A stretch of 64,000 nt of DNA. It comes from an uncultured Acidobacteriota bacterium. GTDB lineage: Bacteria > Acidobacteriota > UBA6911. Each line of letters opens with the position of its first letter. The first letter of the stretch is position 1. A program made the translations under genes and the position numbers. Where the stretch lies: positions 13,444-77,443 of the forward strand of contig CAZHQK010000014.1 in NCBI GenBank assembly GCA_964534795.1, in the 5' to 3' direction. The notes under the pieces are model-generated. The model was not told where the DNA came from. It searched no databases and was given only the letters and a program-made list of their open reading frames with translations. Of this stretch, positions 4,790 through 18,964 are shown piece after piece.

Positions 4790-7621
4790 ATGAAAGCCGC
4801 CCCACGCAGATTGTTCAGGATCCCGGCCGGCATGCCGTGGCTGCTCGCAACCTGCCTCGCTGCGCCGAGCCCGGCCGCCGCCCAGGCGCTGCAACCCACG
4901 CTCGTCGTCGGCGGCAATCCGCTGGTGACGGCCCGTCCCGCGACGCGGATCGGAGAAGAATGGTTCCTCCCCCTGATCCCGATCGCCGAGGCTCTGGGGA
5001 TCGAGGTCGAGGTCGATCCCGGCAGCCTGACCTTGCGCGCCCGGCGCCGGGACGGCACCCAAGTCGTCTATGACGGGCGCACGGGCGAGATCAGGCTGGG
5101 GCACGTGCACGTGGGCCGGCTCGAAGATCACCGGCAGGTCAGCCTGGCCGTTCCGCGCGACGATCTTCTCTTCCCCCTCAACGGCGTGGTCGCGCTGCTC
5201 GGCGTCGAAATCCAGGAGGACCGCGCGCACGCCGCCCTGCGCATCGAGCCCGCAGGGAGCGGAGCGCGCGCGGTCCCGTCCGCGCTCAGCGTGAGCACCC
5301 TGGGTTATGACTACGGCTTCACCACGAACACGGACGATTACAGCCAGTTCGTCGCGCTGCATGGAACCGGCCTTGCGCAGGCCGCCCGATTGAAAGGAAA
5401 CCTCCTCCTCAGCCGCTATCCGGGGCAGTCGGGACTGAATTTCAGCCAGGGAACGCTGCAGGCGGAATTCCCCGGCCGGCGCCGGCTGCTGCTCGGCGAT
5501 CAGGCCGTTTACTCGGGATTGGAAGCCCTGGGCGATGCGGTGCGCGGCGCGGGCATGCAACTGCCGCTCGCAGGATACGATGCGCACTTCTACGGCGGCC
5601 GCTCGATGAGCGCCGCCTTCGCCTCGCTGGGCGGCGGATTTTCCCGCTACGACGCCGGAATCGCCGGCTTCGCGCTGCGGCGGAAAACGGCGGCGCGCGA
5701 CCTGTCGTTCGGCGGGCACTACTTCGACGGCGAGGAGCGCCGGGGCGCGGCCGCGGGCGTCTCCTACGGGCGGGCCGACGCTGGCAATCAGTTCGCTTCC
5801 CAGATCGTTTTCGGGCGATTTTCCGGACAGAGCACGCGCAGCGCCGACGAGCCGATCACCGTGGACGGGCCGGCGCTCGGCCTGACCGTGACGGACACCT
5901 ACATACCGGTGCGCCGGCTCTCCGTCAGCGGTCGCTTCGACAGCTACGGCCGGAACTTTCTCACGCCTCGCGCCGACCCGCGCTTCCAGGGGCAGACGGC
6001 CGCCGCCTTTTCCGCCGTATTCCGGCCGAATACCTCGGTCAGCCTCACAGCGGGAGTCCACAGGCGGACATACCTGGTCGGAAACCGCGGTGGGCTCGGC
6101 GGCTACAATCTGGGGGCTCAGGCCGTGCTCCCGCACCGGCATCCGTTGCAGTTCGGGTTCTTCCGCTCCGTGCAGGGCGACCCTGCGGCGCCGGGCGTGA
6201 AGACTTCTTTGACCCAGGTCTCGCTCGCGCTGCCCCAGTCCGGCCGGTATACCGCGTATGCTCATTACACCGCCATGGGATTCGCCGGCACACGCGCGCA
6301 CGAGCTCGACGGCATCCTGGCCATCGACTTCCGGGACCGCGGCCGCCTGGTCGTGCACGACCACGTGCAGTTCGGCGGCCATCACCGCCTGGGCGCCGAC
6401 TGGTACCTGGACATGCCCCGGAGGGGCGGGTTCATCCGCGCCGGCATCGACCGTGCGGCCGTTCGCGGCGAGCGCGCCGGCTTCTATCCCCTGGTCGGCT
6501 TCAGAGTGCGCCTGCCGCACGGGCACAGCCTGCAGCTGACGTATCTTTCGGACCGCGGCAACCGCACGTTGCGCGTGGAGATCGGAGGCAGCCTGGTGAG
6601 GGAGCCGGAATTTGCGGGCCGCACCACACCCGGCACGCTCGTGCGCCCGGCACGCGTGACGGGCCGGGCTTACCTGGATCGCGACCTCGACGGAACGTTC
6701 GCCAGCGGCACGGACAGGCCCGTTGCCGATATCCCCGTTTTCCTCGACGGCGTGCACGTTGCGTCTACGGATGCCCAGGGCATGTTTTGCGTGGAGGGCG
6801 TGATTCCGGGCGCGCACACGCTGCGCGCCGGCCTCGAAGGAGTACCGGCCGACATGGTCTTTGCCGGCCCGGCGGAAAAGACCGTCGCGGTTATTCCTTT
6901 CCGCGATAACGTTGTCGACTTCCGCCTGGCTCGCACGGGGCGCATCGGCGGCAGGATCTCCTACCTGGACTACGGAGGCGACCCGGAGGCTCCCGTGGAA
7001 AGGCCCCTTCCCGATGTGCGCATTCTCGCCGGGAGCGAGCATGACGCCTATTCGGAAGCGAACGGCAGGTTCATGCTTGGTGACCTGCCGCCGGGTACCT
7101 ACGAGCTGAGGCTGGATCCCGATACATTGCCCCCGGGCTACGAGCCCCGGCTGCCGGCCCTGGCGGTGATCGTCGCGCCCGGAGAAACCGTCCAGGGCGC
7201 CGATTTCCTGCTGGTCGTCCCCCCCAAACCGATAGTCGAAAAATCCCTGCCGCCCATGGTGGCCACGCAGCCCGAGGGCCCGGCAGCGCAGGCTGCCGGA
7301 TCCCGCGCAAGCGGCGCGGATGAAAACCAGGCCGAGCCTCCCGCGCCCGCTCTCCCGGCCGTGGAGCGCAAACCGCCGCCAAGCCCCGTGGCATTCGAGA
7401 TCCAGGTCTTTTCCTCGCGCGTTCGCAAGGAGGCGCAAGAGCGCGCCGAGCAGTTGCGCCGCGCGGGCTATTCGCCCATCGTGCGGCGCGCCCGCCTCGG
7501 CAACGGCGAGCTCTGGTACCGCGTCCGGCTCGCGGGCTTCGACTCGCGCGCAAGCGCCGCCGCCGCCGGCGAAGTGCTCATCGCCAAGAAGCTCGCGGAA
7601 TCCTACTGGGTGATTCCATAA
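4790..7621 (+). CDS. Large outer-membrane usher-like protein with two CarboxypepD_reg/CnaB-like domains and a C-terminal SPOR (peptidoglycan-binding) domain
   Basis: 943 aa. Signal peptide MKAAPRRLFRIPAGMPWLLATCLAAPSPAAAQA. Gly/Tyr/Arg-rich beta-barrel-like middle region. C-terminal EIQVFSSRVRKEAQERAEQLRRAGYSPIVRRARLGNGELWYRVRLAGF matches the SPOR fold signature. The opposite-strand 1047-aa ORF is a shadow frame. Confidence 0.55.
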   Translation: MKAAPRRLFRIPAGMPWLLATCLAAPSPAAAQALQPTLVVGGNPLVTARPATRIGEEWFLPLIPIAEALGIEVEVDPGSLTLRARRRDGTQVVYDGRTGEIRLGHVHVGRLEDHRQVSLAVPRDDLLFPLNGVVALLGVEIQEDRAHAALRIEPAGSGARAVPSALSVSTLGYDYGFTTNTDDYSQFVALHGTGLAQAARLKGNLLLSRYPGQSGLNFSQGTLQAEFPGRRRLLLGDQAVYSGLEALGDAVRGAGMQLPLAGYDAHFYGGRSMSAAFASLGGGFSRYDAGIAGFALRRKTAARDLSFGGHYFDGEERRGAAAGVSYGRADAGNQFASQIVFGRFSGQSTRSADEPITVDGPALGLTVTDTYIPVRRLSVSGRFDSYGRNFLTPRADPRFQGQTAAAFSAVFRPNTSVSLTAGVHRRTYLVGNRGGLGGYNLGAQAVLPHRHPLQFGFFRSVQGDPAAPGVKTSLTQVSLALPQSGRYTAYAHYTAMGFAGTRAHELDGILAIDFRDRGRLVVHDHVQFGGHHRLGADWYLDMPRRGGFIRAGIDRAAVRGERAGFYPLVGFRVRLPHGHSLQLTYLSDRGNRTLRVEIGGSLVREPEFAGRTTPGTLVRPARVTGRAYLDRDLDGTFASGTDRPVADIPVFLDGVHVASTDAQGMFCVEGVIPGAHTLRAGLEGVPADMVFAGPAEKTVAVIPFRDNVVDFRLARTGRIGGRISYLDYGGDPEAPVERPLPDVRILAGSEHDAYSEANGRFMLGDLPPGTYELRLDPDTLPPGYEPRLPALAVIVAPGETVQGADFLLVVPPKPIVEKSLPPMVATQPEGPAAQAAGSRASGADENQAEPPAPALPAVERKPPPSPVAFEIQVFSSRVRKEAQERAEQLRRAGYSPIVRRARLGNGELWYRVRLAGFDSRASAAAAGEVLIAKKLAESYWVIP

Positions 7622-8006: not shown

Positions 8007-8852
8007 TCATGCGCGCGGGCCGAACTGGGGAGCGCGCAGGCGCTCGGCGTGGTCGCGCACCATGGTGGTGAGCAGCGGGTCGGCGAGCCGCAGGAAGCGT
8101 GCTGCCGGCTGCTGCTCCAGCTTCATGGCCGGGTCCTTCTCGAAGCCGATCTCCAGGAAGATCATCGACTGGTTGGCCAGCTCGACGACGGCCGCAAGCT
8201 TGCAATACTTGCCCGCCGCCGCGTGGTCGTGGTGGTGCAGGATCGCCTCGGCAAGATGATTGGGGAATCTCCAGCGCTCCGCCACCAGGGCGCCCACCTC
8301 GGCGTGGGTGAACCCGAAGCGCTCGCTCTCGGCCCGGCGGAAGGTTCTTTCGCCGCGGTGGACCAGGTTGAGGATTTCCAGGTAGCGGGGCTCGTGGTTT
8401 TTCAGGAAGACCACCTTGCCGATGTCGTGCAGCAGGCCGGCGGTGAAGGCCTCCTCGGGGTTGTGGTAGTCGATGCAGCGCGCGATGGCCCTGGCCAGCA
8501 CGGCCGCCCCCCAGGAATGCTGCCAGAACAGCTGGGAGGCCAGTCCCGCCGGGCGGCCGCCGTTGCCCTGGTGCAGCTGCTCGACCGAGGCCGCGATCAG
8601 GATGGAGCGCAGCGTCTGCAGGCCCAGAATGCTCACGGCGTGCGTCAGCGTGGACACTTCGCGCTGGAAGGAAAACATCGCGGAATTGACGATTTTCAGT
8701 ATGCGTGCGGTCAGCGCCTGATCCTGGGCGATCACCGCCTGGAGTTCGCGCGCCGACGTGTCGGGCTTTTCCGAAAGGCGCAGCGCCTTCATGGCGATCA
8801 TCGGGAATGGCGGCAGGTCTCCCGCCCGGGCGGCGATTTCTTCGGCGTTCAT
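8007..8852 (-). CDS. HDOD domain signalling protein
   Basis: 281 aa. HD-related output domain signature (ILKIVNSAMF, GLLHDIGKVVF, HHHDH). The 418-aa extended ORF (to 8859/7603) is a frame artefact. Confidence 0.75.
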   Translation of the reverse strand: MNAEEIAARAGDLPPFPMIAMKALRLSEKPDTSARELQAVIAQDQALTARILKIVNSAMFSFQREVSTLTHAVSILGLQTLRSILIAASVEQLHQGNGGRPAGLASQLFWQHSWGAAVLARAIARCIDYHNPEEAFTAGLLHDIGKVVFLKNHEPRYLEILNLVHRGERTFRRAESERFGFTHAEVGALVAERWRFPNHLAEAILHHHDHAAAGKYCKLAAVVELANQSMIFLEIGFEKDPAMKLEQQPAARFLRLADPLLTTMVRDHAERLRAPQFGPRA

Positions 8853-8949
8853 CGCGCAACCTCCGGTTTCAGGAAATCCTATCGTTGCGCGGAGGCGCGG
8901 ACTGTAGGACTTTGCCTGGTGCGCGCGTCTTTGCCGGGCGCAGCACGCG

Positions 8950-9490
8950 GCTGTCGCGCGAACCGTACCTGCCGCAGGGAAAGGTGGCGATCTACACCAC
9001 GACCTTCGAGAAGCACGGCTACAATCCGCTGCCGGTCTGGGTGGAGCCCCCCGAGAGCCTGACCGGCACTCCCGAGCTGAAAGAGAAGTATCCCCTGATC
9101 TTTTCGGATCACCACACCTCGAAGGTGTACAACGCCGGGTGGCTGCGGCATGTGCCGAACCTCAGGGAGGTCATGCCCCATCCCACGGTCCAGATTCATC
9201 CGGAGGCCGCCGCGGCGCGCGGCATCCGCGACGGCGACTGGGTCGTCGTGGAATCGCCCCATGCGCGCACGAAGTTTCAGGCCGAGATCACTCCCGGTAT
9301 CCGGCCGGACACCGTGATGGCGCTGCACGGCTGGCGGCAGGGGTGCGAGGAACTCGGCCTCCCCGGCTGTCCGCTTTCGGACGGCGGCGCCAACACCAAC
9401 GCGATGTACAGCGTCGATTTCGACAAAGCCTTCGATCCAGTGGTGACGGCGATGTCGAGTCAGACCCTGGTCCAGGTGCGCAAGGCATAG
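8950..9490 (+). pseudogene. Molybdopterin (DMSO reductase-family) oxidoreductase catalytic subunit, C-terminal about 180-aa remnant only
   Basis: Translation REPYLPQGKVAIYTTTFEKHGYNPLPVWVEPPES...VVVESPHARTKFQAEITPGIRPD is the C-terminal molybdopterin-dinucleotide-binding domain. The roughly 600 N-terminal residues are absent; sequence upstream of 8950 runs into the HDOD gene. Confidence 0.6.
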
Positions 9491-9506
9491 GCGGAGGAAA
9501 GCCGAA

Positions 9507-10079
9507 ATGGCTCAACTGGGCTTTTTCATCGGAACCGAACGATGCGTGCAGTGCCGTGCATGCGAAGTCGCCTGCAAGTCCTGGAACGGGATCGAACCCG
9601 GGGTGCGCTGGAGGCGCGTGCTCCAGGATTGGGGAGGCGCCTATCCGGAAGTCGCCGATCGCACGATCTCGGTTTCCTGCATGCACTGCGAAAAGCCGGC
9701 CTGCGCCGCGGCCTGCCCCGCCGGCGCCATCTCGAAGAGGGCCGAGGTCGGAGTCGTGACCGTCGATCGCAACAAGTGCATCGGCTGCCGTTCATGCTCG
9801 AAAGCGTGTCCTTACGGCGTCCCCCGATACGGAAAGAGCGGCAGGATGCAGAAGTGCGACCTGTGCCTGGAACGGCGCGCGCAGGGGAAGGAGCCGGCGT
9901 GCACGGCAACCTGCCCCGGGGAAGCGTCGAAGGCCGGGACCATCGAAGAGCTGGGGCGCATGGCGGCGCAGAGATCCGGCGCGAGACTCGCCGGCGACAC
10001 CCTCCCGGCTCTTTTCATTTCCGGCAAACCCGCCGGCGAATCCTGGCTGCCGGTGATCCAATCCCTGCCAAGCCGTTGA
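9507..10079 (+). CDS. 4Fe-4S ferredoxin-type iron-sulfur subunit (DmsB/NarH-like electron-transfer subunit)
   Basis: 190 aa. Four Cys clusters (CVQCRACEVAC, CMHCEKPACAAACP, CIGCRSCSKACP, CDLCLERR...CTATCP). Immediately downstream of the catalytic-subunit remnant. Confidence 0.8.
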   Translation: MAQLGFFIGTERCVQCRACEVACKSWNGIEPGVRWRRVLQDWGGAYPEVADRTISVSCMHCEKPACAAACPAGAISKRAEVGVVTVDRNKCIGCRSCSKACPYGVPRYGKSGRMQKCDLCLERRAQGKEPACTATCPGEASKAGTIEELGRMAAQRSGARLAGDTLPALFISGKPAGESWLPVIQSLPSR

Positions 10080-10197
10080 GGATTCGGGGAAAGGCATCGA
10101 GCCGGGGACCGATTGCCCGGCCTGCGGCGATTTTCGGTTGGCGCCCCGACGATCGGCTCGATGACTCCGGAGGCATTCGAATCCCCGAGCGTTGCCT

Positions 10198-10848
10198 CTA
10201 GAACAAGCGCTTGATGATTGAAAAAGCGGCGTCGATGTCTCTTTCGTCCAGGACCACGGTGAACTCATTGAGCGTGGATACGACCTCGATGACGTTCAGA
10301 CCTTCCCAAGCCAGGGCCTTGAGGATGTGGCTGTATACTCCCGGGACGGAAACGGTCCCGGCCGGCAGCATGACGGTGACCGAGGCCAGCTGGCCGATTT
10401 GACAAACATGTCTTTCGCCGCGGAAGGCGGCCAGGACCGGCTCCTCGATCTCGCGGCTGGCGATGATCGTCGTCTCATTGATACCCCGGGTGACCGTGAG
10501 AAAGAGGGAAGGTCGCGCGCTCAGACGTTCCAGCAGCCGACTCTGCTTGAGCACGAGCGTCGCAGAGTTGGCGTAGGTGACTTCGAACAGGCGCAGCCGG
10601 ACGATGAGGTCGGGCGCCCTGCGAAAAACGCCTGCGCGTTTTTTCGACCTGGCGGTGAGTGTCCGGGACAGGCGGCCGAGCGCGACGATCAGGGCCCCCA
10701 ATTGAACGCTTTTCATGGCTTCGCGCTCGACGTCTCTTCGGATGCGCCGCGCCAGCGCCGAATGGTTCACGATGCCCAGGCTCAGGGCGTCTTCCAGGTA
10801 CGGCGAACGGCGCACCAGCGCCGTGACGATCTCGGGAATCGTGCGCAT
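10198..10848 (-). CDS. Hypothetical protein with C-terminal ACT-like fold; possible small-molecule-sensing regulator, divergent from the lysW operon
   Basis: 216 aa. C-terminal PGVYSHILKALAWEGLNVIEVVSTLNEFTVVLDERDIDAAFSIIKRL resembles an ACT domain. The start shares the AT-rich intergenic region with lysW. Confidence 0.45.
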   Translation of the reverse strand: MRTIPEIVTALVRRSPYLEDALSLGIVNHSALARRIRRDVEREAMKSVQLGALIVALGRLSRTLTARSKKRAGVFRRAPDLIVRLRLFEVTYANSATLVLKQSRLLERLSARPSLFLTVTRGINETTIIASREIEEPVLAAFRGERHVCQIGQLASVTVMLPAGTVSVPGVYSHILKALAWEGLNVIEVVSTLNEFTVVLDERDIDAAFSIIKRLF

Positions 10849-10857
10849 GTTGAAAGT

Positions 10858-10885
10858 TTAACATTTTCTTGCAAATTTGTATAAT
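10858..10885 (+). promoter_or_regulatory. Sigma-70-like promoter candidate in an AT-rich island (TTAACA-16 bp-TATAAT) upstream of lysW
   Basis: -35 TTAACA at 10858-10863 and -10 TATAAT at 10880-10885, inside an about 60-bp AT-rich stretch that is exceptional for this GC-rich sequence. About 95 nt upstream of the lysW ATG. Confidence 0.45.
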
Positions 10886-10980
10886 ATTTTCAAAAATTTG
10901 ATCCGGCCGGCAAGCCCCTGCTAGGATCCTCGCGCCTGGTTGGACACCTTGGTCCTTTTCCCCATGGAGGTGCAGAGGCC

Positions 10981-11181
10981 ATGTCGACAGAACGCCGCCA
11001 ACGGACGCTCAGCGGGACCTGCCCGATTTGCTCGGCTGCAGTCGCGCCGGCGGGGCCCGTCGAAGATACCGAGATTCTCGCCTGTCCCGAATGCCAATCG
11101 CTGCTGGTGGTCGGCGGTCGCGCGGAGGGCGGACTGGTCCTGAGAGAAGCGCCCAGAGTCGAAGAGGACTGGGGCGAATAG
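10981..11181 (+). CDS. lysW: LysW/ArgW amino-group carrier protein (AmCP)
   Basis: 66 aa. Zinc-finger pairs TCPIC ... CPEC. C-terminal EDWGE motif diagnostic of LysW carrier proteins. GGAGG RBS upstream. Confidence 0.85.
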   Translation: MSTERRQRTLSGTCPICSAAVAPAGPVEDTEILACPECQSLLVVGGRAEGGLVLREAPRVEEDWGE

Positions 11182-11210
11182 AAGCAGGCCCGAAGGCAGG
11201 AGGGCCTTCG

Positions 11211-12065
11211 ATGTACACGCTGGCCATATTCCACTCCACCGTGCGCGAGGAAGAAAAGCGCCTTATGGCTGCGGCGGGATCGCGCGCCATTCGTGTCAGG
11301 CTGATCGACATCCGGGAGCAGGTCTTCGACCCCGCGACCTATCAGGTCGATTTCGACGCCGCGCTGCAACGGTCGGTTTCGACGGTGAAGGGGAACTACG
11401 CCATTGCTTTCCTCGAAGCCCGGGGCATACCCGCGATCAATCCGCTCTGCGTAGCCCGGAACTGCGAGGACAAGTTCCAGACCTCTCTGCTTCTTTTCCG
11501 CGCGGGAATTCCCGTCCCACGCTTCGCTCTCGTCTTTTCCCCGCAACAGGCACTCCATGCCGTGGAAGCCCTGGGCGGTTTCCCCGTCGTGCTCAAGCCG
11601 CCGCTGGGTTCCTGGGGGCGCCTCCTGGCCAAGATCAATGACCCGGATGCCCTGGATGCGCTTTTCGAGCATAAGGAGGTGCTGGGAGCGCCCGCGCAAA
11701 AAGCTTTCTATCTTCAGGAATTCGTGCACAAACCGGGGCGCGACATCCGCGCCTTCGTCATCGATGGCGAGACCGTGTGCGCCATTTACCGGGAATCTCC
11801 TCACTGGATCACGAACACCGCTCGTGGAGGCAAGGCCCGCAACTGCCCTGTGAGCGACGAGCTTCGCGACCTGTGCCGCCGCGTTGCCGAAGCCATCGGC
11901 GGTGGGTTGCTGGCCGTGGATCTGTTCGAGACCGCCGCGGGTCTTCAGGTCAATGAAGTCAACCATACCATGGAATTCCGCAACTCCGAAGGTCCGACGG
12001 GAGTCGATATTGCCGCCGCCGTGATCGATTACTGCATCCGCATAATGAAAGGGCAGCGGCCATGA
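11211..12065 (+). CDS. lysX: LysX, RimK-type ATP-grasp ligase (attaches substrate amino group to the LysW C-terminal Glu)
   Basis: 284 aa ATP-grasp fold (VVLKPPLGSWGR, ...AVDLFE...). The stop overlaps the next start (ATGA). Confidence 0.8.
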   Translation: MYTLAIFHSTVREEEKRLMAAAGSRAIRVRLIDIREQVFDPATYQVDFDAALQRSVSTVKGNYAIAFLEARGIPAINPLCVARNCEDKFQTSLLLFRAGIPVPRFALVFSPQQALHAVEALGGFPVVLKPPLGSWGRLLAKINDPDALDALFEHKEVLGAPAQKAFYLQEFVHKPGRDIRAFVIDGETVCAIYRESPHWITNTARGGKARNCPVSDELRDLCRRVAEAIGGGLLAVDLFETAAGLQVNEVNHTMEFRNSEGPTGVDIAAAVIDYCIRIMKGQRP

Positions 12066-13120
12066 ATGACTCCAGGCTGCGCGTCTCACTCATCGGAGGG
12101 TCCGGCTACGCCGGGGGAGAATTGCTCCGTATTCTGCTGTGGCACCCGAAGGTCCGCGTTCAGCAAGTGACCAGCGACCGTTGTGCGGGCCAGCCCGTGA
12201 CTCTGGTGCATCCCAATCTTCGCGGACACACGGCCATCGCGTTCGTCGGCACCGATGAGGTCGATGAATGCGACCTGATTTTTCTCGCCCTCCCGAACGG
12301 AGAATCCATGCGCACCATGGAAAAGTGGATGGCGAAGGCCGACCGTATCATCGATCTGGGTGCCGACTTCCGGCTGCGGAGCGCGGACGCCTGGTCGGCC
12401 TGGTACGGGATTCCGCACGAGGCGCCCCATCTGATCTCCCGGTTCACTTGCGGCATCCCGGAAATATACGCCGATGAAATCCGCAAGTCCCGCTATGTCG
12501 CCGGCCCGGGGTGCGAGGCGATTGTCTCCATCCTCTGCCTTTTTCCCCTTGTAAAGCACGGACTGCTCAAGCCCCATCCCATCGTGATTGACGCCAAAAT
12601 GGGCAGTTCCCAGGCCGGCCGCACCGTCACCGACGCCTCGCACCATCCGGAAAGAGCCGGTGCCGTCCGCTCCTACAAGCCCAGCGGGCACCGCCATGCT
12701 GCGGAAATCGAACAGGTCCTTCAGGACTTCGGCGCCGCGGTCTCAACCCTGATCTCGGCCACGGCCATCGAAATGGTGCGCGGCATCCTCGTGACCATTC
12801 ACGCCTTCTGCGACGACCCGCGCCTTACCGAGCAGCGGATCTGGCAGACGTTCCGCGTCGAGTACACGGGGAAACCGTTCGTGCGGATGGTGAAGCAAAG
12901 CCGGGGGCTTTATCGTTATCCTGAGCCGAAAATCCTCAAGGGCACGAACTACTGCGACATCGGTTTCGAGAAGGAGCGGCGCTCCGACCGGCTGGTCGTC
13001 ATCGGCGCCATCGACAACCTCGTCAAGGGCAGCGCAGGCAACGCAGTCCAATGCATGAATCTCATGTGCGGGTTCCCCGAAACCATGGGACTCGAGTTCC
13101 CAGGCCTTCATCCGGTGTGA
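12062..13120 (+). CDS. lysY: LysY/ArgC-type NAGPR-family semialdehyde dehydrogenase (reduces the LysW-bound acyl-phosphate)
   Basis: 352 aa. N-terminal Rossmann LIGGSGYAGGELLRIL. Catalytic Cys motif AGPGCEAI. Confidence 0.8.
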   Translation: MNDSRLRVSLIGGSGYAGGELLRILLWHPKVRVQQVTSDRCAGQPVTLVHPNLRGHTAIAFVGTDEVDECDLIFLALPNGESMRTMEKWMAKADRIIDLGADFRLRSADAWSAWYGIPHEAPHLISRFTCGIPEIYADEIRKSRYVAGPGCEAIVSILCLFPLVKHGLLKPHPIVIDAKMGSSQAGRTVTDASHHPERAGAVRSYKPSGHRHAAEIEQVLQDFGAAVSTLISATAIEMVRGILVTIHAFCDDPRLTEQRIWQTFRVEYTGKPFVRMVKQSRGLYRYPEPKILKGTNYCDIGFEKERRSDRLVVIGAIDNLVKGSAGNAVQCMNLMCGFPETMGLEFPGLHPV

Positions 13121-13122
13121 AT

Positions 13123-14175
13123 ATGAATATGGAGAGCACGGCTCTGATCCACTTCAAGGGTGTGATCGACACGACGCTGCGCGAAGGTCTCCAGTTCGCG
13201 CGGGCGGCCTTTGCAGCGGCACAGCATCGAAGGATTTTCGACTACCTGCAGCAAATCGGCGTCGATTACATCGAAGTGGGTAACCCCGTCCAAGACAATA
13301 TCGGACAGATCGTTTCCGGTTTGGCCCGAAGCCGGGGCCCCCATGGAGCAAAAATCCTCTGCCACGTGCGCAATCATCCGCGCGACATTGCCAGGGCCAT
13401 CGACTGCGGTGCCGACGGCGTCAACATCCTCTGCACCGTGGATCTCGAGCGGCTGGACCGCATGGGACTGACGCTTGCGGATTACCAAGACAGGGTCTGC
13501 CGGGGCGTCAACCAGGCAAGGGAGCACGGCCTTGAAGTCCGAGTTGGAGTCGAGGACTTCTTCGGCCAGGATTCGGAGACGGCGCTGGATATTTACGCCA
13601 CCGCCGTCGCATGCGGGGCAGAGCGGATCGCCGTGGCCGATACGCTTGGAAAAACCATGCCTTGGGAGGTTATGCGCCGGATCCGGCGCCTCCGGAACCG
13701 CTTCCCCGTGGACATCGAAGTCCATTTCCACAACGATCTGGGACATGCGGTGAGCAACGCCATTGCCGCTCTTCGAGCCGGGGCCAACTGGGTCAGTACT
13801 TCGCTCCTCGGCATCGGCGAGCGCACCGGAATCACGCCGCTCAGCTCGTTTCTTGCCAACCTGCATGTCCTGGATGAGCGGGCTGCGCGCCGCTACCGGT
13901 TGAGCCGGCTGACGGAAGCCGAGAATTACGTCGCCTGCGTTTGCGGGATCGACATGCCGCTCCATCTCATGACCAATCCCGCCAGCGGCTTCGCCCACAA
14001 AGCCGGCATCCACCTCGACGCGCTGATCAAATTCGGACCGCACAAGTACGAATGCCTCCCTCCCGAAGTCATCGGCAACAAGCGCCGCCTGGTGATCTCC
14101 ACGATCGTTTCGGGCAAGACCACGGAGGAGGATGTGGCGGCTTTCGAGGAACGTTTCGGTCGAGGCTGGGCATGA
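13123..14175 (+). CDS. Homocitrate synthase-like HMGL-family enzyme (short HCS type without an IPMS regulatory domain), with atypical R-E-G-L-Q in place of R-E-G-E-Q
   Basis: 350 aa. DTTLREGLQ, HFHNDLGHA, GIGERTGITPLSSFLANLH, FAHKAGIHLDAL and LPPEVIGNKRRL closely parallel Thermus-type homocitrate synthase blocks. Embedded between lysY and lysZ with a 2-nt gap and an ATGA overlap. Confidence 0.75.
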   Translation: MNMESTALIHFKGVIDTTLREGLQFARAAFAAAQHRRIFDYLQQIGVDYIEVGNPVQDNIGQIVSGLARSRGPHGAKILCHVRNHPRDIARAIDCGADGVNILCTVDLERLDRMGLTLADYQDRVCRGVNQAREHGLEVRVGVEDFFGQDSETALDIYATAVACGAERIAVADTLGKTMPWEVMRRIRRLRNRFPVDIEVHFHNDLGHAVSNAIAALRAGANWVSTSLLGIGERTGITPLSSFLANLHVLDERAARRYRLSRLTEAENYVACVCGIDMPLHLMTNPASGFAHKAGIHLDALIKFGPHKYECLPPEVIGNKRRLVISTIVSGKTTEEDVAAFEERFGRGWA

Positions 14176-14972
14176 TCCTGATCAAGGCAGGCGGCGGGCG
14201 GAATCTCAACTGGAACGGTATTGCCGCGGATATCGCCGACCTCCGGCGAAGCGTCCCGGTCATCCTGGTACACGGCGCCAACGCCATACGGAGCGACATT
14301 GCCCTGCGCCTTGGCGTTCCCGTTCGAACGGTGGTTTCGCCCTCGGGTGTGACCAGCGTTTACACCGACCCGGAGGGGCTGGAGGTGTTCCTCATGGCCT
14401 ACGCTGGCGTTGCCAACAAACGCATTGTAGCCTGCCTGCAGCGCTGGGGCGTCAATGCGGTCGGCCTGTGCGGGGTCGATGGCCGGCTCTGGCAGGCGAA
14501 GGCCAAAAAGGATCTGTTGGTGGTGGAGAACGGCAAGACCAAGCTCCTGCGGGACAATCTCACCGGCAGGGTCGAAAACGTCAATGCCGACCTTGTGCGT
14601 CTTCTCCTGGATCACGGCTATGTGCCTGTTCTATGCGCACCAGCCATCAGCGACGAGCATGAAATCGTCAACACCGATAACGACGGAGCCGCCGCCATCG
14701 TAGCGGCGGCCATGGGGGTCAGGTTCATGATCTACCTGTTCGAGGCTCCCGGTTTTCTCGAAGACCCGGAGCGACCCGACAGCCTGGTTCCCAGGATACC
14801 GCGCAGCGCAATCCAAGAGTACCTGCCCTTGGCCCGAGGCCGGATGCGGAGGAAGCTGCTGGGTGCGCAGCGAGCCCTCGAGCACGGGGTGATGGAAATC
14901 AGATTCGGAGACGGACGTGTAGAGCGACCGGTCCTGGATGCGCTTGCCGGCAAAGGAACGGTCATCCAATGA
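14172..14972 (+). CDS. lysZ: LysZ/ArgB-type amino-acid kinase (phosphorylates the LysW-bound substrate)
   Basis: 266 aa amino-acid-kinase fold (ILIKAGGG, VLVHGAN, NTDNDGAAAIVAAAMG). ATGA overlaps on both sides. Confidence 0.8.
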   Translation: MILIKAGGGRNLNWNGIAADIADLRRSVPVILVHGANAIRSDIALRLGVPVRTVVSPSGVTSVYTDPEGLEVFLMAYAGVANKRIVACLQRWGVNAVGLCGVDGRLWQAKAKKDLLVVENGKTKLLRDNLTGRVENVNADLVRLLLDHGYVPVLCAPAISDEHEIVNTDNDGAAAIVAAAMGVRFMIYLFEAPGFLEDPERPDSLVPRIPRSAIQEYLPLARGRMRRKLLGAQRALEHGVMEIRFGDGRVERPVLDALAGKGTVIQ

Positions 14973-16165
14973 CGGACACACTGCTTCTTCAACGGGAGTA
15001 CACGGTGCCGACCTACACCGACCGCAAGCTGGCCTTGGTCCTGGGTGACGGCGTCTATTTACAGGATGAGTCCGGTTCTCGTTACTTGGACTTCATGTCG
15101 AACTACGGCATCGCAATCTTTGGGTACCGCCACCCCGACATCACACGGCGACTGACGGAGCAACTGGAGCGCCTGCCGAATCTTCACGGAAGTTTTGCCA
15201 ATGATGTGCGGGCGGAAGCCGCCCGGCGGCTTGTCGCTCGCTGCGGCGGCGGCCTCGCCCGGGTCTGTTTTACCAATTCCGGCGCGGAAGCCAACGAGGC
15301 AGCCCTGAAATTTGCGGTACTGGCCACAGGCAAGAAGAGATTCATCGCCTGCCGCGGCGGCTATCACGGCAAGACCCTGGGCGCGCTTTCGGCAACCGAC
15401 AGTGCGAAATACCGGCAGACGTTGGAACCCCTGATCTGGGACTTTCGATTCATACCATATGGCGAGCCGGAAGCCTTGGAACGTGCGATCGACAACGACA
15501 CGGCGGCCTTCATCGTCGAGCCCATTCAGGGTGAAAGCGGGGTCCGGATCCCTGCGGAGGGATATCTCGGCCATGCGGCCCGGATCTGCCGTTCTCGAGG
15601 TGCTCTGATGATCGTCGATGAAATCCAGACCGGGACCGGCCGGACAGGCCGCTTTCTGGCCTCCCACGCCGAAGGTCTGACATACGACATCGTCACTCTG
15701 GGAAAAGGTCTCGCGGGAGGAATTCCAGTGGGCGCCACGCTCGTTTCGGCCGCAGTCGCCAGGGGGGTTGCAAGAGGAGCGCACACCTCGACGTTTGGAG
15801 GCAATCCCCTTGCAGCCGCCGGTATCCTGGCGGTCTTGGAACTCATGGACCAGGAGCGCCTTGGCCATATTTCGGCGATAGGAAAGAGGTTCCTTGAAGG
15901 TCTCAGGGGGCTTCCCGGCCCGAACATCGTCGAAGCCCGGGGGAGAGGACTCATGATCGGCCTGGAACTCAGGCGGTCACGCGATGAGGTTCTCGAGCGT
16001 CTTCAGAGGGAAGGCGTTCTGGCGGCGCCGGCCGGAGAGAACGTCGTGCGCTTCCTTCCTCCTTATATCGTCGAAATGACTCACGTCGACATCGTTCTGG
16101 GGAGGCTCGAACGTATTCTGGCTTCATTGGCTGTGGAGAGCGATCGACAATGTGCCGCTTTCTGA
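14969..16165 (+). CDS. lysJ: LysJ/ArgD-type class III PLP aminotransferase
   Basis: 398 aa. DEIQTGTGRTG and TLGKGLAGG (PLP lysine) motifs. Confidence 0.8.
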   Translation: MTDTLLLQREYTVPTYTDRKLALVLGDGVYLQDESGSRYLDFMSNYGIAIFGYRHPDITRRLTEQLERLPNLHGSFANDVRAEAARRLVARCGGGLARVCFTNSGAEANEAALKFAVLATGKKRFIACRGGYHGKTLGALSATDSAKYRQTLEPLIWDFRFIPYGEPEALERAIDNDTAAFIVEPIQGESGVRIPAEGYLGHAARICRSRGALMIVDEIQTGTGRTGRFLASHAEGLTYDIVTLGKGLAGGIPVGATLVSAAVARGVARGAHTSTFGGNPLAAAGILAVLELMDQERLGHISAIGKRFLEGLRGLPGPNIVEARGRGLMIGLELRRSRDEVLERLQREGVLAAPAGENVVRFLPPYIVEMTHVDIVLGRLERILASLAVESDRQCAAF

Positions 16166-16815
16166 TGCTCCAGGCCGCTTCTCCCTTCCATGTCGCGGGC
16201 GTCCTGACGAGCTTTGCGGACATGGTTGCGCGCAGCCGCGCTCCGGACGGCCATTGGCAGGGGGACGGCTGGGGCGTCGGCTGGCTGGATAGCTCCCGGG
16301 AATGGCGCGTCCGCAAATCGCTGAGCCCTATCTGGGAAGATGCCCCCGTGTTTTCCGAAATTCCCGCGACTACAGCTCTGGTCGCCCACGCGCGCAGCGC
16401 CTCGTTCCCGGAGCAGAAGAATATTCTGGCCTACAACCAGCCATTCGCCGCAGGCCCCTATGCGTTCGTCTTCAACGGGTTCCTCCGGGGAGTATCGCTC
16501 CCCTTTCCCGTGGAGGGGAAAATCGGATCACAGAAGATCTGGTTCCTGCTGGCCGACCTCTTGAGCGTGAGGTCTCCTGAAGAAAGCCTCCGTGAGCTCG
16601 TCCATCTCCTGGAATCTCATTCCCGGCGGGTCCTGGCTCTGAACATCGGCCTTTTCGTTGCAAACCGCATCTTCGCGCTCTGCAGTCATGACGGCACCGA
16701 TGATTACTACCGGCTTCGGGTTCACAGGTCAGCTACGCTCACCATGGTCAGCTCGGAGGAGTTCGGGGACTTTGCCTTCGATCCTGCCCCTATGAATGCC
16801 GTCCTTGCATTCTGA
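16150..16815 (+). CDS. EgtC-like class II (Ntn, Cys2) glutamine-amidotransferase-fold amidohydrolase; candidate LysW-gamma-glutamyl release enzyme
   Basis: 221 aa beginning MCRFL (nucleophilic Cys2). GDGWGVGW, FVFNGFL and ALNIGLFVANRIF parallel EgtC blocks. The last gene of the lysW operon, overlapping lysJ by 16 nt. No M20 LysK/ArgE homologue is present. Confidence 0.7.
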   Translation: MCRFLMLQAASPFHVAGVLTSFADMVARSRAPDGHWQGDGWGVGWLDSSREWRVRKSLSPIWEDAPVFSEIPATTALVAHARSASFPEQKNILAYNQPFAAGPYAFVFNGFLRGVSLPFPVEGKIGSQKIWFLLADLLSVRSPEESLRELVHLLESHSRRVLALNIGLFVANRIFALCSHDGTDDYYRLRVHRSATLTMVSSEEFGDFAFDPAPMNAVLAF

Positions 16816-16926
16816 TCCCAAGGCGGCTCCTTCAAGAACATTCTGCAGCGAAGTGCGATCGGGAGAAGATGTCATGGCCTGCAGATCTCGATGCCGGCGA
16901 CATGCCCTGCATCAGAGCGGTTCGCG

Positions 16927-17172
16927 TCATCCGCCGGCGCCTGCCGCGCTTTGCGGCTGTTCCCCGTGAGCGGCAGGCGAGAAACATCCGGGCAGCTCGA
17001 CCGGCTCTTCGAGCCGGAGACCGGCATAGCCGAGATACTTGTCGTAATCGATCGCTTTCGTAGTCGAAGCGTACTCGAACAGCTCCTGGAGTGAAACGCC
17101 GGCGACGTTCTCGCAGACCGCCCGGAATTCTTCGTCCGTCCAGCCGCGCCCGGCTTTCGGCCGGCGGCTCAC
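16927..17172 (-). CDS. Small ORF (81 aa, GTG start overlapping the arabinofuranosidase stop); possibly a gene fragment
   Basis: Reasonable codon usage but no recognisable domain. The GTG start overlaps the upstream TGA. Confidence 0.25.
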
Positions 17173-18707
17173 TGCAACTGCAGCTGCAGGATCGTGAGCG
17201 AGTGGGCCGGGAAGACGTAGGTGAAGGCGTTGTTCTCGACGGCCAGTGATGCCGTCCTGGTCACAGGACGGACCTTGTTGTCGGCGCCGAAGGTGTGCGT
17301 CGCCTTCAGGTCCGGGTGGTTCATTTCCCAGATGCGCGCCTCGCTGCGCAGCCGGCCCTCCTGGTTCTCGATGCGCGCGGCGATATCCGTCCCCCGGCTG
17401 CGGTTCAGGACATTCAGATAGACCGCGCGCTGCGCGGCATTGTATGTCGCCGAAACATCGAGATATTTGAGGGGCGGGCGGTTACCGACGGTGTACGTGG
17501 GCGCCGCGACCCAGACGTCGAGCGCCGTGTTGCCGCGCTGCCTGCCGTATTCCTCGATCGGGAAGAAGATCGGCTGCAGGAACAGCCCCTGGCGGTTGGT
17601 CATGATGGGGGCGATCACGTTGACCATCTGGGCGAGATTGGCCATCTTGACGATGTCGGCATTGCGGAAGAAGCAATTGAAAAACATCCCCATGGCCAGG
17701 GCGTCTTCGAAGTTGTAGATTTCCTCGAGCTTCTCCTTGTTTCCCGTGCGGTACCAGACGTTCCACTCGTCGTAGGCGATGTAGACCGGGCGCCCCCCGG
17801 GCTGGCGCGTCTGGCGGATGAGGCCGCGGGTCACCTCGATGTAATGCTCGATCGTCTGCGACCAGGCGAGGAACCGTTCCAGGTCGTTGTCGCGGTTGTT
17901 GATATAGGTGTGGATGGCGATGTAGTCGACGGTGTTGCGCAGCTCGGCGAGCACGGTGCGGTTCCACGCGATCCAGTCGGCGCCGTAGTTGCTCGAGCCG
18001 CTGGCGACCAGCTTGATGGTGCGGTCGACGGCGCGCATGGCCTTGGCGGCCTCGAGGGCGAATCTGGCGTACTCCTCGGCGCTCTTGTGGCCGAGCTGCC
18101 ACGGGCCGTCGATCTCGTTGCCCAGGGCCCAGTACTTGACGCCGTAGGGGGTCTCGCGGCCGTTCTTGCGCCGCTGGTCGGCCCAGCAGGTACGGCGCGA
18201 CTCGTTGCAGTACTCGACCCAGTGGCGCGCGTCGTCGATGGTGCCCAGGCCGAGGTTGATGCAGATGTAGGGCTCGGCGCCAATGAGCTCGCAGTAGCGG
18301 AGGAACTCGTCCGTGCCGAAGCGGTTGCTCTCGAGGTCGTCCCATGCCAGCTCGGGGCGCACCGGGCGCAGCTCCTTGGGGCCCATGCCGTCCTTCCAGT
18401 TGTAGCCCGAGGCGAAGTTGCCGCCGGGCCAGCGCAGGATGGAGACGCCCAGGCGGCGCACGGCGTCGATCACGTCCTTGCGATATCCGTTCGCGTCCGA
18501 AAGCGGGCTGCCCTCTTCGTAGATGCCGCCGTAGATCATGCGGCCCAGGTGTTCGGCGAAGTTGCCGAAGAGATGCGGGTGCACCTCGCCGATGGTGCGG
18601 TCGATGTCGATCTTGATGCGCGCCTGCGGGGCCGCAGTCTGCGCGGGCGCCGGCGCGGCACACACGGCCGTGGCGCAGAAGAACAGAACTATCGCACGTA
18701 TTCTCAT
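17169..18707 (-). CDS. Alpha-L-arabinofuranosidase, GH51 family, secreted
   Basis: 512 aa. Signal peptide [25 protein letters not shown]51 blocks ([35 protein letters not shown]). The 550-aa track ORF extends upstream of the true start. Confidence 0.85.
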
Positions 18708-18964
18708 GGCATCTCTCCTTGGGAGCGGCCGCGCGCCGCCGGTTCGTCCTCCGCCCCGCCCCTCGGTGCGAACTTCCATGTGTAGATCAGCCCGAGCCCG
18801 AGCAGCAGCGCTCCCCACCACAGCGCCGCGTGCAGGTGCGCCATTTTCACCGTGACCGCCGGCGGACGGACCAGTTCGTACAGGCCCACCCCGAGGATCA
18901 GCACGCCGTAGAAGTCGAGCAGGAGGCCGATGAAGAACCAGATCGGGATGAAACGCCTGCGCAT
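18704..18964 (-). CDS. Small two-TM membrane protein (DUF3311-like companion of the solute:sodium symporter)
   Basis: 86 aa, hydrophobic. ATGA overlap with the arabinofuranosidase start. Immediately downstream of the SSS transporter. Confidence 0.5.

Follow-up and report, generated by a model that had tools for sequence, protein, structure and literature searches.

The stretch of DNA analysed here (the window) comprises 64,000 nucleotides from an uncultured Acidobacteriota bacterium of the UBA6911 lineage (GenBank assembly GCA_964534795.1, contig CAZHQK010000014.1, positions 13,444 to 77,443 of the forward strand) and carries a lysW operon whose last gene, labelled GATL below, encodes a 221-aa stand-alone cysteine amidohydrolase of the class II glutamine amidotransferase or N-terminal nucleophile (Ntn) fold. 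We consider it probable that GATL performs the last step of a variant LysW lysine pathway, in which an Ntn cysteine amidohydrolase does the job of LysK. The pathways that run on LysW, or amino group carrier proteins (AmCP), are the textbook case of carrier-protein-protected amino acid biosynthesis: LysX charges the C-terminal Glu of LysW with an amino acid, and no release enzyme other than LysK has, to our knowledge, been described. In a 2025 paper, the group behind the definition of the pathway still names LysK, an ArgE homologue, as the hydrolase (PMC12998189). From the comparative data presented here we rate GATL as a putative non-orthologous displacement of this release enzyme, with a predicted substrate that would be of a new class for the fold.

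The genes of the operon run in the order lysW-lysX-lysY/argC-homocitrate synthase-lysZ-lysJ-GATL, all on the plus strand and with stops and starts that overlap or abut (Table 1); the start of GATL overlaps the stop of lysJ by 16 nt. As the first-pass annotation of this DNA had it, GATL is the terminal gene, the seventh and last of the co-directional genes, and the genes downstream lie on the minus strand. With a LysW zinc ribbon, an EDWGE tail, and LysX, LysZ, LysY and LysJ, the operon is by its family matches that of a LysW-mediated α-aminoadipate lysine pathway, and it is assigned to α-aminoadipate/lysine biosynthesis because a homocitrate synthase-like gene is present. The lysJ product stays below the NCBIfam cutoffs both of LysJ_Th_th (338 bits, cutoff 700) and of the argD subfamily (360 bits, cutoff 410). 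Reading of the open reading frame (ORF) gives GATL the N-terminus MCRFL, and the start codon is right because the Cys2 claimed earlier as its nucleophile is kept in 85 of 85 full-length homologues from other loci. Three public contigs carry the same operon, and their independent gene calls give the same 221-aa product after a 398-aa aminotransferase, with identical gene lengths.

The GATL family is well conserved: a database search returned 727 matches with 42–57% identity, in proteins of about 221 aa that are named 'hypothetical protein' or 'class II glutamine amidotransferase' in their source records. For the products on the three public contigs no Pfam match is recorded, and some other homologues have a precomputed PF13230 hit. 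A first set of loci (sample 1) was found via GATL homologues by scanning a single genome for each species, which gave 80 loci, and the operon genes therein were located by tblastn with the window's proteins. At about 66 of the 80 a GATL homologue stands directly after lysJ in a lysW-X-Y-(HCS)-Z-J operon (HCS, homocitrate synthase), in about 10 there is no lysW nearby, and a few more sit on contigs too short to judge. Like LysK, GATL is thus co-inherited with lysW-X-Y-Z-J operons. The syntenic loci belong to Aminicenantes/Acidobacteriota, to many Microgenomates lineages of the Candidate Phyla Radiation (CPR; Roizman-, Gottesman-, Levyi-, Davies-, Shapiro- and Pacebacteria), to Dehalococcoidia (Chloroflexota) and Fischerbacteria, and to one Woesearchaeota (DPANN) and one Borrarchaeota contig (binned as Asgard), a list of phyla to be taken loosely, given that labels of metagenome-assembled genomes such as 'uncultured Gammaproteobacteria', 'Clostridia' and 'Eubacteriales' look unreliable. 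Despite such labels, the operon proteins of L012, L015, L018, L021, L023 and other loci cluster with those of CPR Microgenomates or Aminicenantes, and L012, the sole one examined for composition, is CPR-like at 43% GC. The operon is carried as well by the Aminicenantes chromosome OY969762.1 and by two contigs of roughly 0.9 Mb, CAZVTT010000001.1 and CAZRCW010000001.1, which are labelled 'Gammaproteobacteria' but appear to be CPR.

The place directly after lysJ is also that of LysK, the ArgE-type M20 metallopeptidase of Thermus, Sulfolobus and Thermococcus. The earlier statement that no ArgE/M20 homologue lies in or next to the operon holds for the full 64-kb window, where neither phmmer with E. 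coli ArgE nor a LysK-type M20 hidden Markov model (HMM) finds one even at E<=1. The HMM was built from 22 lysW-adjacent M20 genes of a second sample described below, and true LysK proteins score 250–300 bits with it; at none of the 80 loci of sample 1 does it find a LysK-type M20 within 10 kb. The observation that the first-pass annotation had named as part of a refutation of its proposal, a LysK of the M20 type kept in synteny with lysW homologues, was therefore looked for locally and not encountered.

Sample 2 consists of metagenome contigs chosen by a DNA pattern for [IVM]EEDWG[EQ]-stop alone, and holds at least 120 loci, almost all of them with a genuine lysW; among viral contigs the LysW-tail pattern had no match. 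A co-occurrence analysis of the kind proposed earlier shows the two release-gene candidates to be mutually exclusive at lysW: in the 120 listed loci a GATL family member was found 9 times (after lysJ, or after lysZ in L169), LysK 20–21 times (after lysJ or lysZ), and both together never. The division follows two subtypes of the carrier. LysW of the form '...C.[DE]C...LVV...EAPx[IV]EEDWG[EQ]', to which the window's protein belongs, goes with the GATL family, and LysW of the form '...CPDCG.ELEV...LAPEVEEDWGE' goes with LysK; Thermus LysW is of the second form. Among the listed loci, every operon of the first subtype whose contig extends past lysJ carries GATL. The association between LysW subtype and release gene has a Fisher p=1e-7, a value that overstates independence, as the subtypes are two deep clades.

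The C-terminus of LysW itself supplies a further line of evidence. In sample 1, 41 of the 55 extracted LysW sequences, including the window's, end in Glu and the other 14 end in EDWGQ, and in the 120 listed loci of sample 2 a terminal Gln is seen in 4/27 LysW of the GATL-type subtype versus 0/93 of the others (Fisher p=0.002). Overall, 18 of 140 operons have the EDWGQ end, all 18 in the clade carrying GATL, and on a neighbour-joining LysX tree of the 140 operons at least 12 independent Glu/Gln switches are required to explain them, every one inside that clade. An ATP-grasp ligase, LysX activates the γ-carboxylate of the terminal Glu of LysW (PMC12998189). Because LysX needs this γ-carboxylate, a terminal Gln is unusable until it is deamidated; and because a C-terminal Gln is equivalent to LysW-γ-Glu-NH2, a hydrolase of LysW-γ-Glu-NH-CH(COOH)-R should accept it too. 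The repeated change from Glu to Gln only where GATL is in the operon hence offers independent support for a predicted action of GATL on the C-terminal γ-carbonyl of LysW, and leads to the prediction that Gln-terminated LysW should require enzymatic deamidation before use.

The same Gln-ended carriers would also suit an enzyme that only matures LysW (C-terminal Gln to Glu), with lysine released by an unlinked LysK or another peptidase; the class II glutaminase site is built for just that amide, and the LysK search covered the window and the loci. We nevertheless regard pure maturation as unlikely. Most LysW proteins already end in Glu, yet GATL is kept in every complete operon; it occupies the LysK slot, with no LysK-type M20 gene within 10 kb in 80 of 80 loci; and a single-turnover maturase would not account for strict operon linkage across phyla.

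Family models register GATL only faintly. It scores 16.3 bits with Pfam GATase_4 (PF13230; gathering score 23) and 45.3 bits with the EgtC equivalog TIGR03442 of NCBIfam (cutoff 218.65), and neither NCBIfam release 20 nor Pfam has a model for the GATL family. A profile search of the PDB gave 3MDN (E=2e-6) and EgtC 4ZFJ (E=1e-5), the alignment being restricted to residues 30–118. Structure prediction, one of the checks suggested at the outset, yielded a confident AlphaFold2 (AF2) model from 57 family members (predicted local distance difference test, pLDDT, 94.4; predicted template modelling score, pTM, 0.91) with the four-layer α-β-β-α Ntn fold. Foldseek against the PDB puts EgtC at the top (E=1e-13, template modelling score (TM) 0.77, 21–23% identity), and further matches are 3MDN, the glutaminase domains of GlmS and PurF, and AsnB; EgtC, GlmS, PurF and AsnB have a probability of 1.00, with TM up to 0.79. 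GATL is therefore by predicted fold an Ntn hydrolase and not of the M20/ArgE fold, and it matches neither ArgE nor the LysK HMM.

EgtC (PDB 4ZFJ/4ZFK/4ZFL), the closest solved structure, is likewise a stand-alone protein of similar size with a Cys2 nucleophile. The blocks that the first-pass annotation quoted as common to both, QGDGWGVGW, FVFNGFL and ALNIGLFVANRIF, are all present in GATL; sharing with EgtC could be demonstrated for the DGWG and NG blocks only. That GATL might be the EgtC orthologue of an ergothioneine pathway is suggested by EgtC being its best structural and NCBIfam match, but the score lies far under the equivalog cutoff, identity is low, and neither the operon nor any of the 80 loci has egtA/B/D/E-like genes. 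By score and by context GATL is not an EgtC orthologue, and we give that reading practically no credence.

The same domain architecture is seen in the stand-alone GATase_4 proteins of unknown function YafJ, PA1307 (1TE5) and SPO2029 (3MDN), which have the Cys2, DGWG, HxR, NG and GxxxSxK motifs in common with GATL; the GATL family differs from them in being about 35 residues shorter and in having invariant Trp, Gln and Tyr positions of its own. With hhalign, the family profile aligns over its full length with E. coli YafJ (probability 95.8%), matching the Cys, HxR and NG motifs; Cys2 follows the initiator Met directly, Asn109-Gly110 corresponds to the oxyanion-hole NG and Arg82 to the carboxylate-binding Arg of HxR. 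Against the GlmS N-domain R73 and N98-G99 agree, but the alignment is weak (probability 0.5%), and that with the PurF N-domain is too poor for use (3.8%). Invariant in the 85 homologues are Cys2, Arg3, Arg82, Asn109-Gly110, Gly126 and Lys129. Where YafJ reads G-E-T-D-S-E-K, GATL reads G-K-I-G126-S-Q-K, with an Asp replaced by Gly126. The Asp of this motif (D127 in PurF, D123 in GlmS) is the one that binds the free α-ammonium of glutamine in class II amidotransferases, and its replacement by glycine fits a peptidyl-Glu substrate, whose α-nitrogen would be engaged in a peptide bond.

The loss of this residue also speaks against GATL as a true glutamine amidotransferase subunit that feeds ammonia to another enzyme. 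The class II fold and the intact catalytic residues would allow such a role, and the arrangement of Cys1, Arg and Asn-Gly is that of the PurF and GlmS glutaminase domains. At about 15% identity to these, however, the 221-aa protein lacks a synthase domain and an ammonia acceptor, Pfam and NCBIfam scans find neither a synthase domain nor an ammonia-using partner in GATL or the operon, and the conserved neighbours are LysW-pathway enzymes only, with amination carried out by a pyridoxal phosphate-dependent transaminase. We judge this role very improbable.

For the release of lysine by GATL we infer the substrate and both reactions, lysine release and deamidation of LysW-Gln, and propose the following course. 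Removal of Met by methionine aminopeptidase would expose Cys2, which becomes Cys1 of the mature enzyme. In all Ntn amidotransferases the free N-terminal amine activates the thiol; here the thiol so activated would attack the γ-carbonyl of LysW Glu66 in LysW-γ-Glu-N(α)-lysine, with Asn109 and Gly110 forming the oxyanion hole and Arg82 holding the free α-carboxylate of Glu66. Gly126 would leave room for the Gly65-Trp64 backbone, so that a Glu with a peptide-bonded α-nitrogen could be accepted. Lysine would depart as the amine (ammonia, if LysW ends in Gln), and water would resolve the γ-glutamyl thioester and regenerate LysW-Glu for LysX; in lineages with Gln-ended LysW the enzyme would thus also prime its carrier by deamidation. 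The reaction predicted for GATL is that of LysK, hydrolysis of the γ-glutamyl isopeptide of LysW Glu to give lysine, but fold and mechanism are unrelated: as an Ntn cysteine hydrolase GATL would pass through a covalent thioester, and LysK is a binuclear metallopeptidase. EgtC provides a precedent for this fold: it cleaves the γ-glutamyl group off an N-substituted γ-glutamyl amide without ammonia transfer (PMC9103826), as predicted for GATL, and this is the bond type of LysW-γ-Glu-Lys, as had been argued earlier. The two would differ in the γ-glutamyl donor, predicted for GATL to be a protein's C-terminal residue.

Several points weigh against a release function of GATL. The main support for its freeing the finished amino acid from LysW, as first proposed from this DNA, comes from synteny, LysK exclusion and Gln-ended LysW, which are comparative genomics. 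The exclusion statistics are not phylogenetically independent and may reflect one ancient replacement, and the absence of LysK holds for the window and for 10 kb around the loci, so that these organisms may have an unlinked LysK. At one locus, L061, GATL occurs together with a generic M20 upstream of lysW (Pfam 71.6 bits, LysK HMM 53.8 bits), the sole M20 match in the window and the 80 loci, both with the LysK HMM and in searches of all ORFs with ArgE and an iterated M20 HMM; we do not take it for a LysK orthologue. The family's isoelectric point is near neutral (median 7.8), and its net charge shows no obvious basic surface on which the acidic LysW could dock. The Asp-to-Gly126 assignment is a profile-sequence alignment with YafJ rather than a superposition of coordinates, and EgtC is not alignable there, the HMMER alignments with 4ZFJ ending at residue 118–123, before the Asp/Gly126 segment. 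Lastly, the homologues without lysW nearby, in Entotheonella/Tectimicrobiota, Caldilineaceae and one Anaerolineae contig, indicate that the family may have, or may have had, another substrate.

These unlinked copies are what a proofreading or salvage hydrolase would lead one to expect, one that acts on mis-charged LysW or on small γ-glutamyl peptides and amides and has no more than a loose link with the pathway. Upstream of the Caldilineaceae copy are genes resembling peptide ABC-transporter ATPases (from translated sequence only), and it adjoins a GNAT acetyltransferase. We hold this to be about as improbable as the maturation-only role. The unlinked copies are a small minority whose contexts share no theme (GNAT, GH39, thiolase and HD in Caldilineaceae and Anaerolineae, the Entotheonella neighbours having been read as raw ORFs), the invariant Gly126 argues against free γ-glutamyl compounds or glutamine as substrates, and salvage leaves unexplained why LysK is absent from the GATL operon type.

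If GATL does release lysine from LysW, the finding would reach beyond the window. We give even weight for and against to the wider proposal that many lineages, most of them uncultured (Aminicenantes/Acidobacteriota, CPR Microgenomates, some DPANN, the Asgard-binned contig, and Chloroflexota), close the LysW cycle by a thiol Ntn hydrolase, and that some of them make an inactive Gln-terminated pro-carrier LysW that is primed and recycled by the same enzyme. Our literature search found no paper linking LysW, or LysW and LysK, with a glutamine amidotransferase, and none joining LysW with CPR or Aminicenantes; the one paper with both an amino group carrier protein and an amidotransferase looks unrelated. 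The earlier remark that this role has not been assigned to the fold agrees with this, no paper or curated family describing it having been found. If confirmed, GATL would be the first member of the class II amidotransferase fold to act on the C-terminal residue of a protein, extending the fold to a protein C-terminal γ-glutamyl isopeptide. A second, unrelated release enzyme would fill an apparent gap in reconstructions of lysine and ornithine pathways, which annotation pipelines would score as incomplete for Aminicenantes, CPR Microgenomates and further uncultured groups, and it bears on the debate about the real auxotrophy of CPR organisms. A metal-free enzyme that cleaves γ-glutamyl-linked cargo from a small carrier tag could, moreover, serve as a tool.

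Table 1. Features of the lysW operon and its borders (window positions)
Feature	Position	Strand	Description
216-aa protein, divergent	10198-10848	-	N-terminal four-helix domain and tandem ACT domains; Pfam DUF7523, ACT_9 weak
Putative sigma-70-like promoter	10858-10885	+	Near-consensus TTAACA-16-TATAAT, 11/12 matches, 95 nt upstream of lysW; by consensus match only
lysW	10981-11181	+	66-aa zinc-ribbon carrier, ends APRVEEDWGE; Pfam Zn_ribbon_LysW and NCBIfam LysW below cutoff
lysX	11211-12065	+	RimK-type ATP-grasp ligase; NCBIfam TIGR02144 LysX_arch 303 bits (cutoff 275.6)
lysY/argC-type semialdehyde dehydrogenase	12062-13120	+	NCBIfam TIGR01850 361 bits, above cutoff
Homocitrate synthase-like	13123-14175	+	HMGL-like and HCS_D2; Pfam HMGL-like E=2e-57; TIGR02146 252 bits (cutoff 413)
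lysZ	14172-14972	+	[LysW]-aminoadipate kinase; NCBIfam NF010659 289 bits (cutoff 223)
lysJ	14969-16165	+	Class III aminotransferase ([LysW]-aminoadipate semialdehyde transaminase type); Pfam Aminotran_3 E=4e-97
GATL	16150-16815	+	221-aa stand-alone class II glutamine amidotransferase-fold (Ntn) cysteine amidohydrolase
GATL Cys2	16153-16155	+	Key residue
GATL Arg82	16393-16395	+	Key residue
GATL Asn109-Gly110	16474-16479	+	Key residues
GATL Gly126	16525-16527	+	Key residue
Downstream gene	16927-17172	-	
Downstream gene	17169-18821	-	

The GATL-type operons differ from those with LysK not only in the LysW subtype and in the Gln-terminated LysW variants, never found with LysK, but also in the divergent tandem-ACT gene upstream of lysW. 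Where the upstream sequence reaches 1.1 kb or more, this gene is present at 17 of 20 loci of the GATL-type LysW subtype versus 1 of 63 of the other subtypes. The AF2 model of its product (pLDDT 89.8) finds 2ZHO, 5YEI and 3AB4 in Foldseek at E of about 4e-9, and its tandem ACT domains resemble the regulatory (β) subunit of aspartate kinase; some records name it 'aspartate kinase'. The protein is probably an amino-acid-sensing regulator, and might act as a transcription factor that senses lysine or as an allosteric partner for LysZ, which has the amino-acid-kinase fold. Past the ACT gene (window 8705-10079, plus strand; L205 8606-9800) lie a 4Fe-4S dicluster protein and a 201-aa gene with a C-terminal 'Molydop_binding' domain alone, and the molybdopterin oxidoreductase catalytic subunit there looks truncated or split.

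Other lysW loci show variations of their own. In L061 (3463-5808; Roizmanbacteria, JACRPE010000017.1) the space between the ACT gene and lysW holds a GNAT-like gene, the M20 gene mentioned above and a truncated lysW-like ORF on the other strand. This ORF ends in ...REEED without a WGE tail, and the arrangement may be left over from a carrier system that was replaced or that existed as a second one. Among the operons of the ELEV (LysK) type, L202 has two lysW in tandem (pattern matches ending at 6291 and 6482, oriented positions), and L154, L164 and L190 have two tandem lysX paralogues each; like L202, these may be dual lysine/arginine carrier systems. In L190 lysJ is followed by a carA-like sequence, and the neighbourhood has no M20.

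In CPR operons at L021, L034, L036, L049, L050, L052, L056, L065, L132 and L172 a gap of about 3 kb separates the HCS-like gene from lysZ, except that in L050 it measures about 4.2 kb and lies between lysY and lysZ, with no HCS match there. The HCS-like genes of these gapped operons share only about 30% identity with that of the window. Additional α-aminoadipate genes (homoaconitase and homoisocitrate dehydrogenase) probably lie in the gap, which would amount to a complete lysine pathway in genomes usually called amino-acid auxotrophs. In the window itself (10001-18000) the operon has a GC content of about 62% against 66–69% in both flanks, which may hint at horizontal acquisition of this operon, one that very distant phyla have in common.

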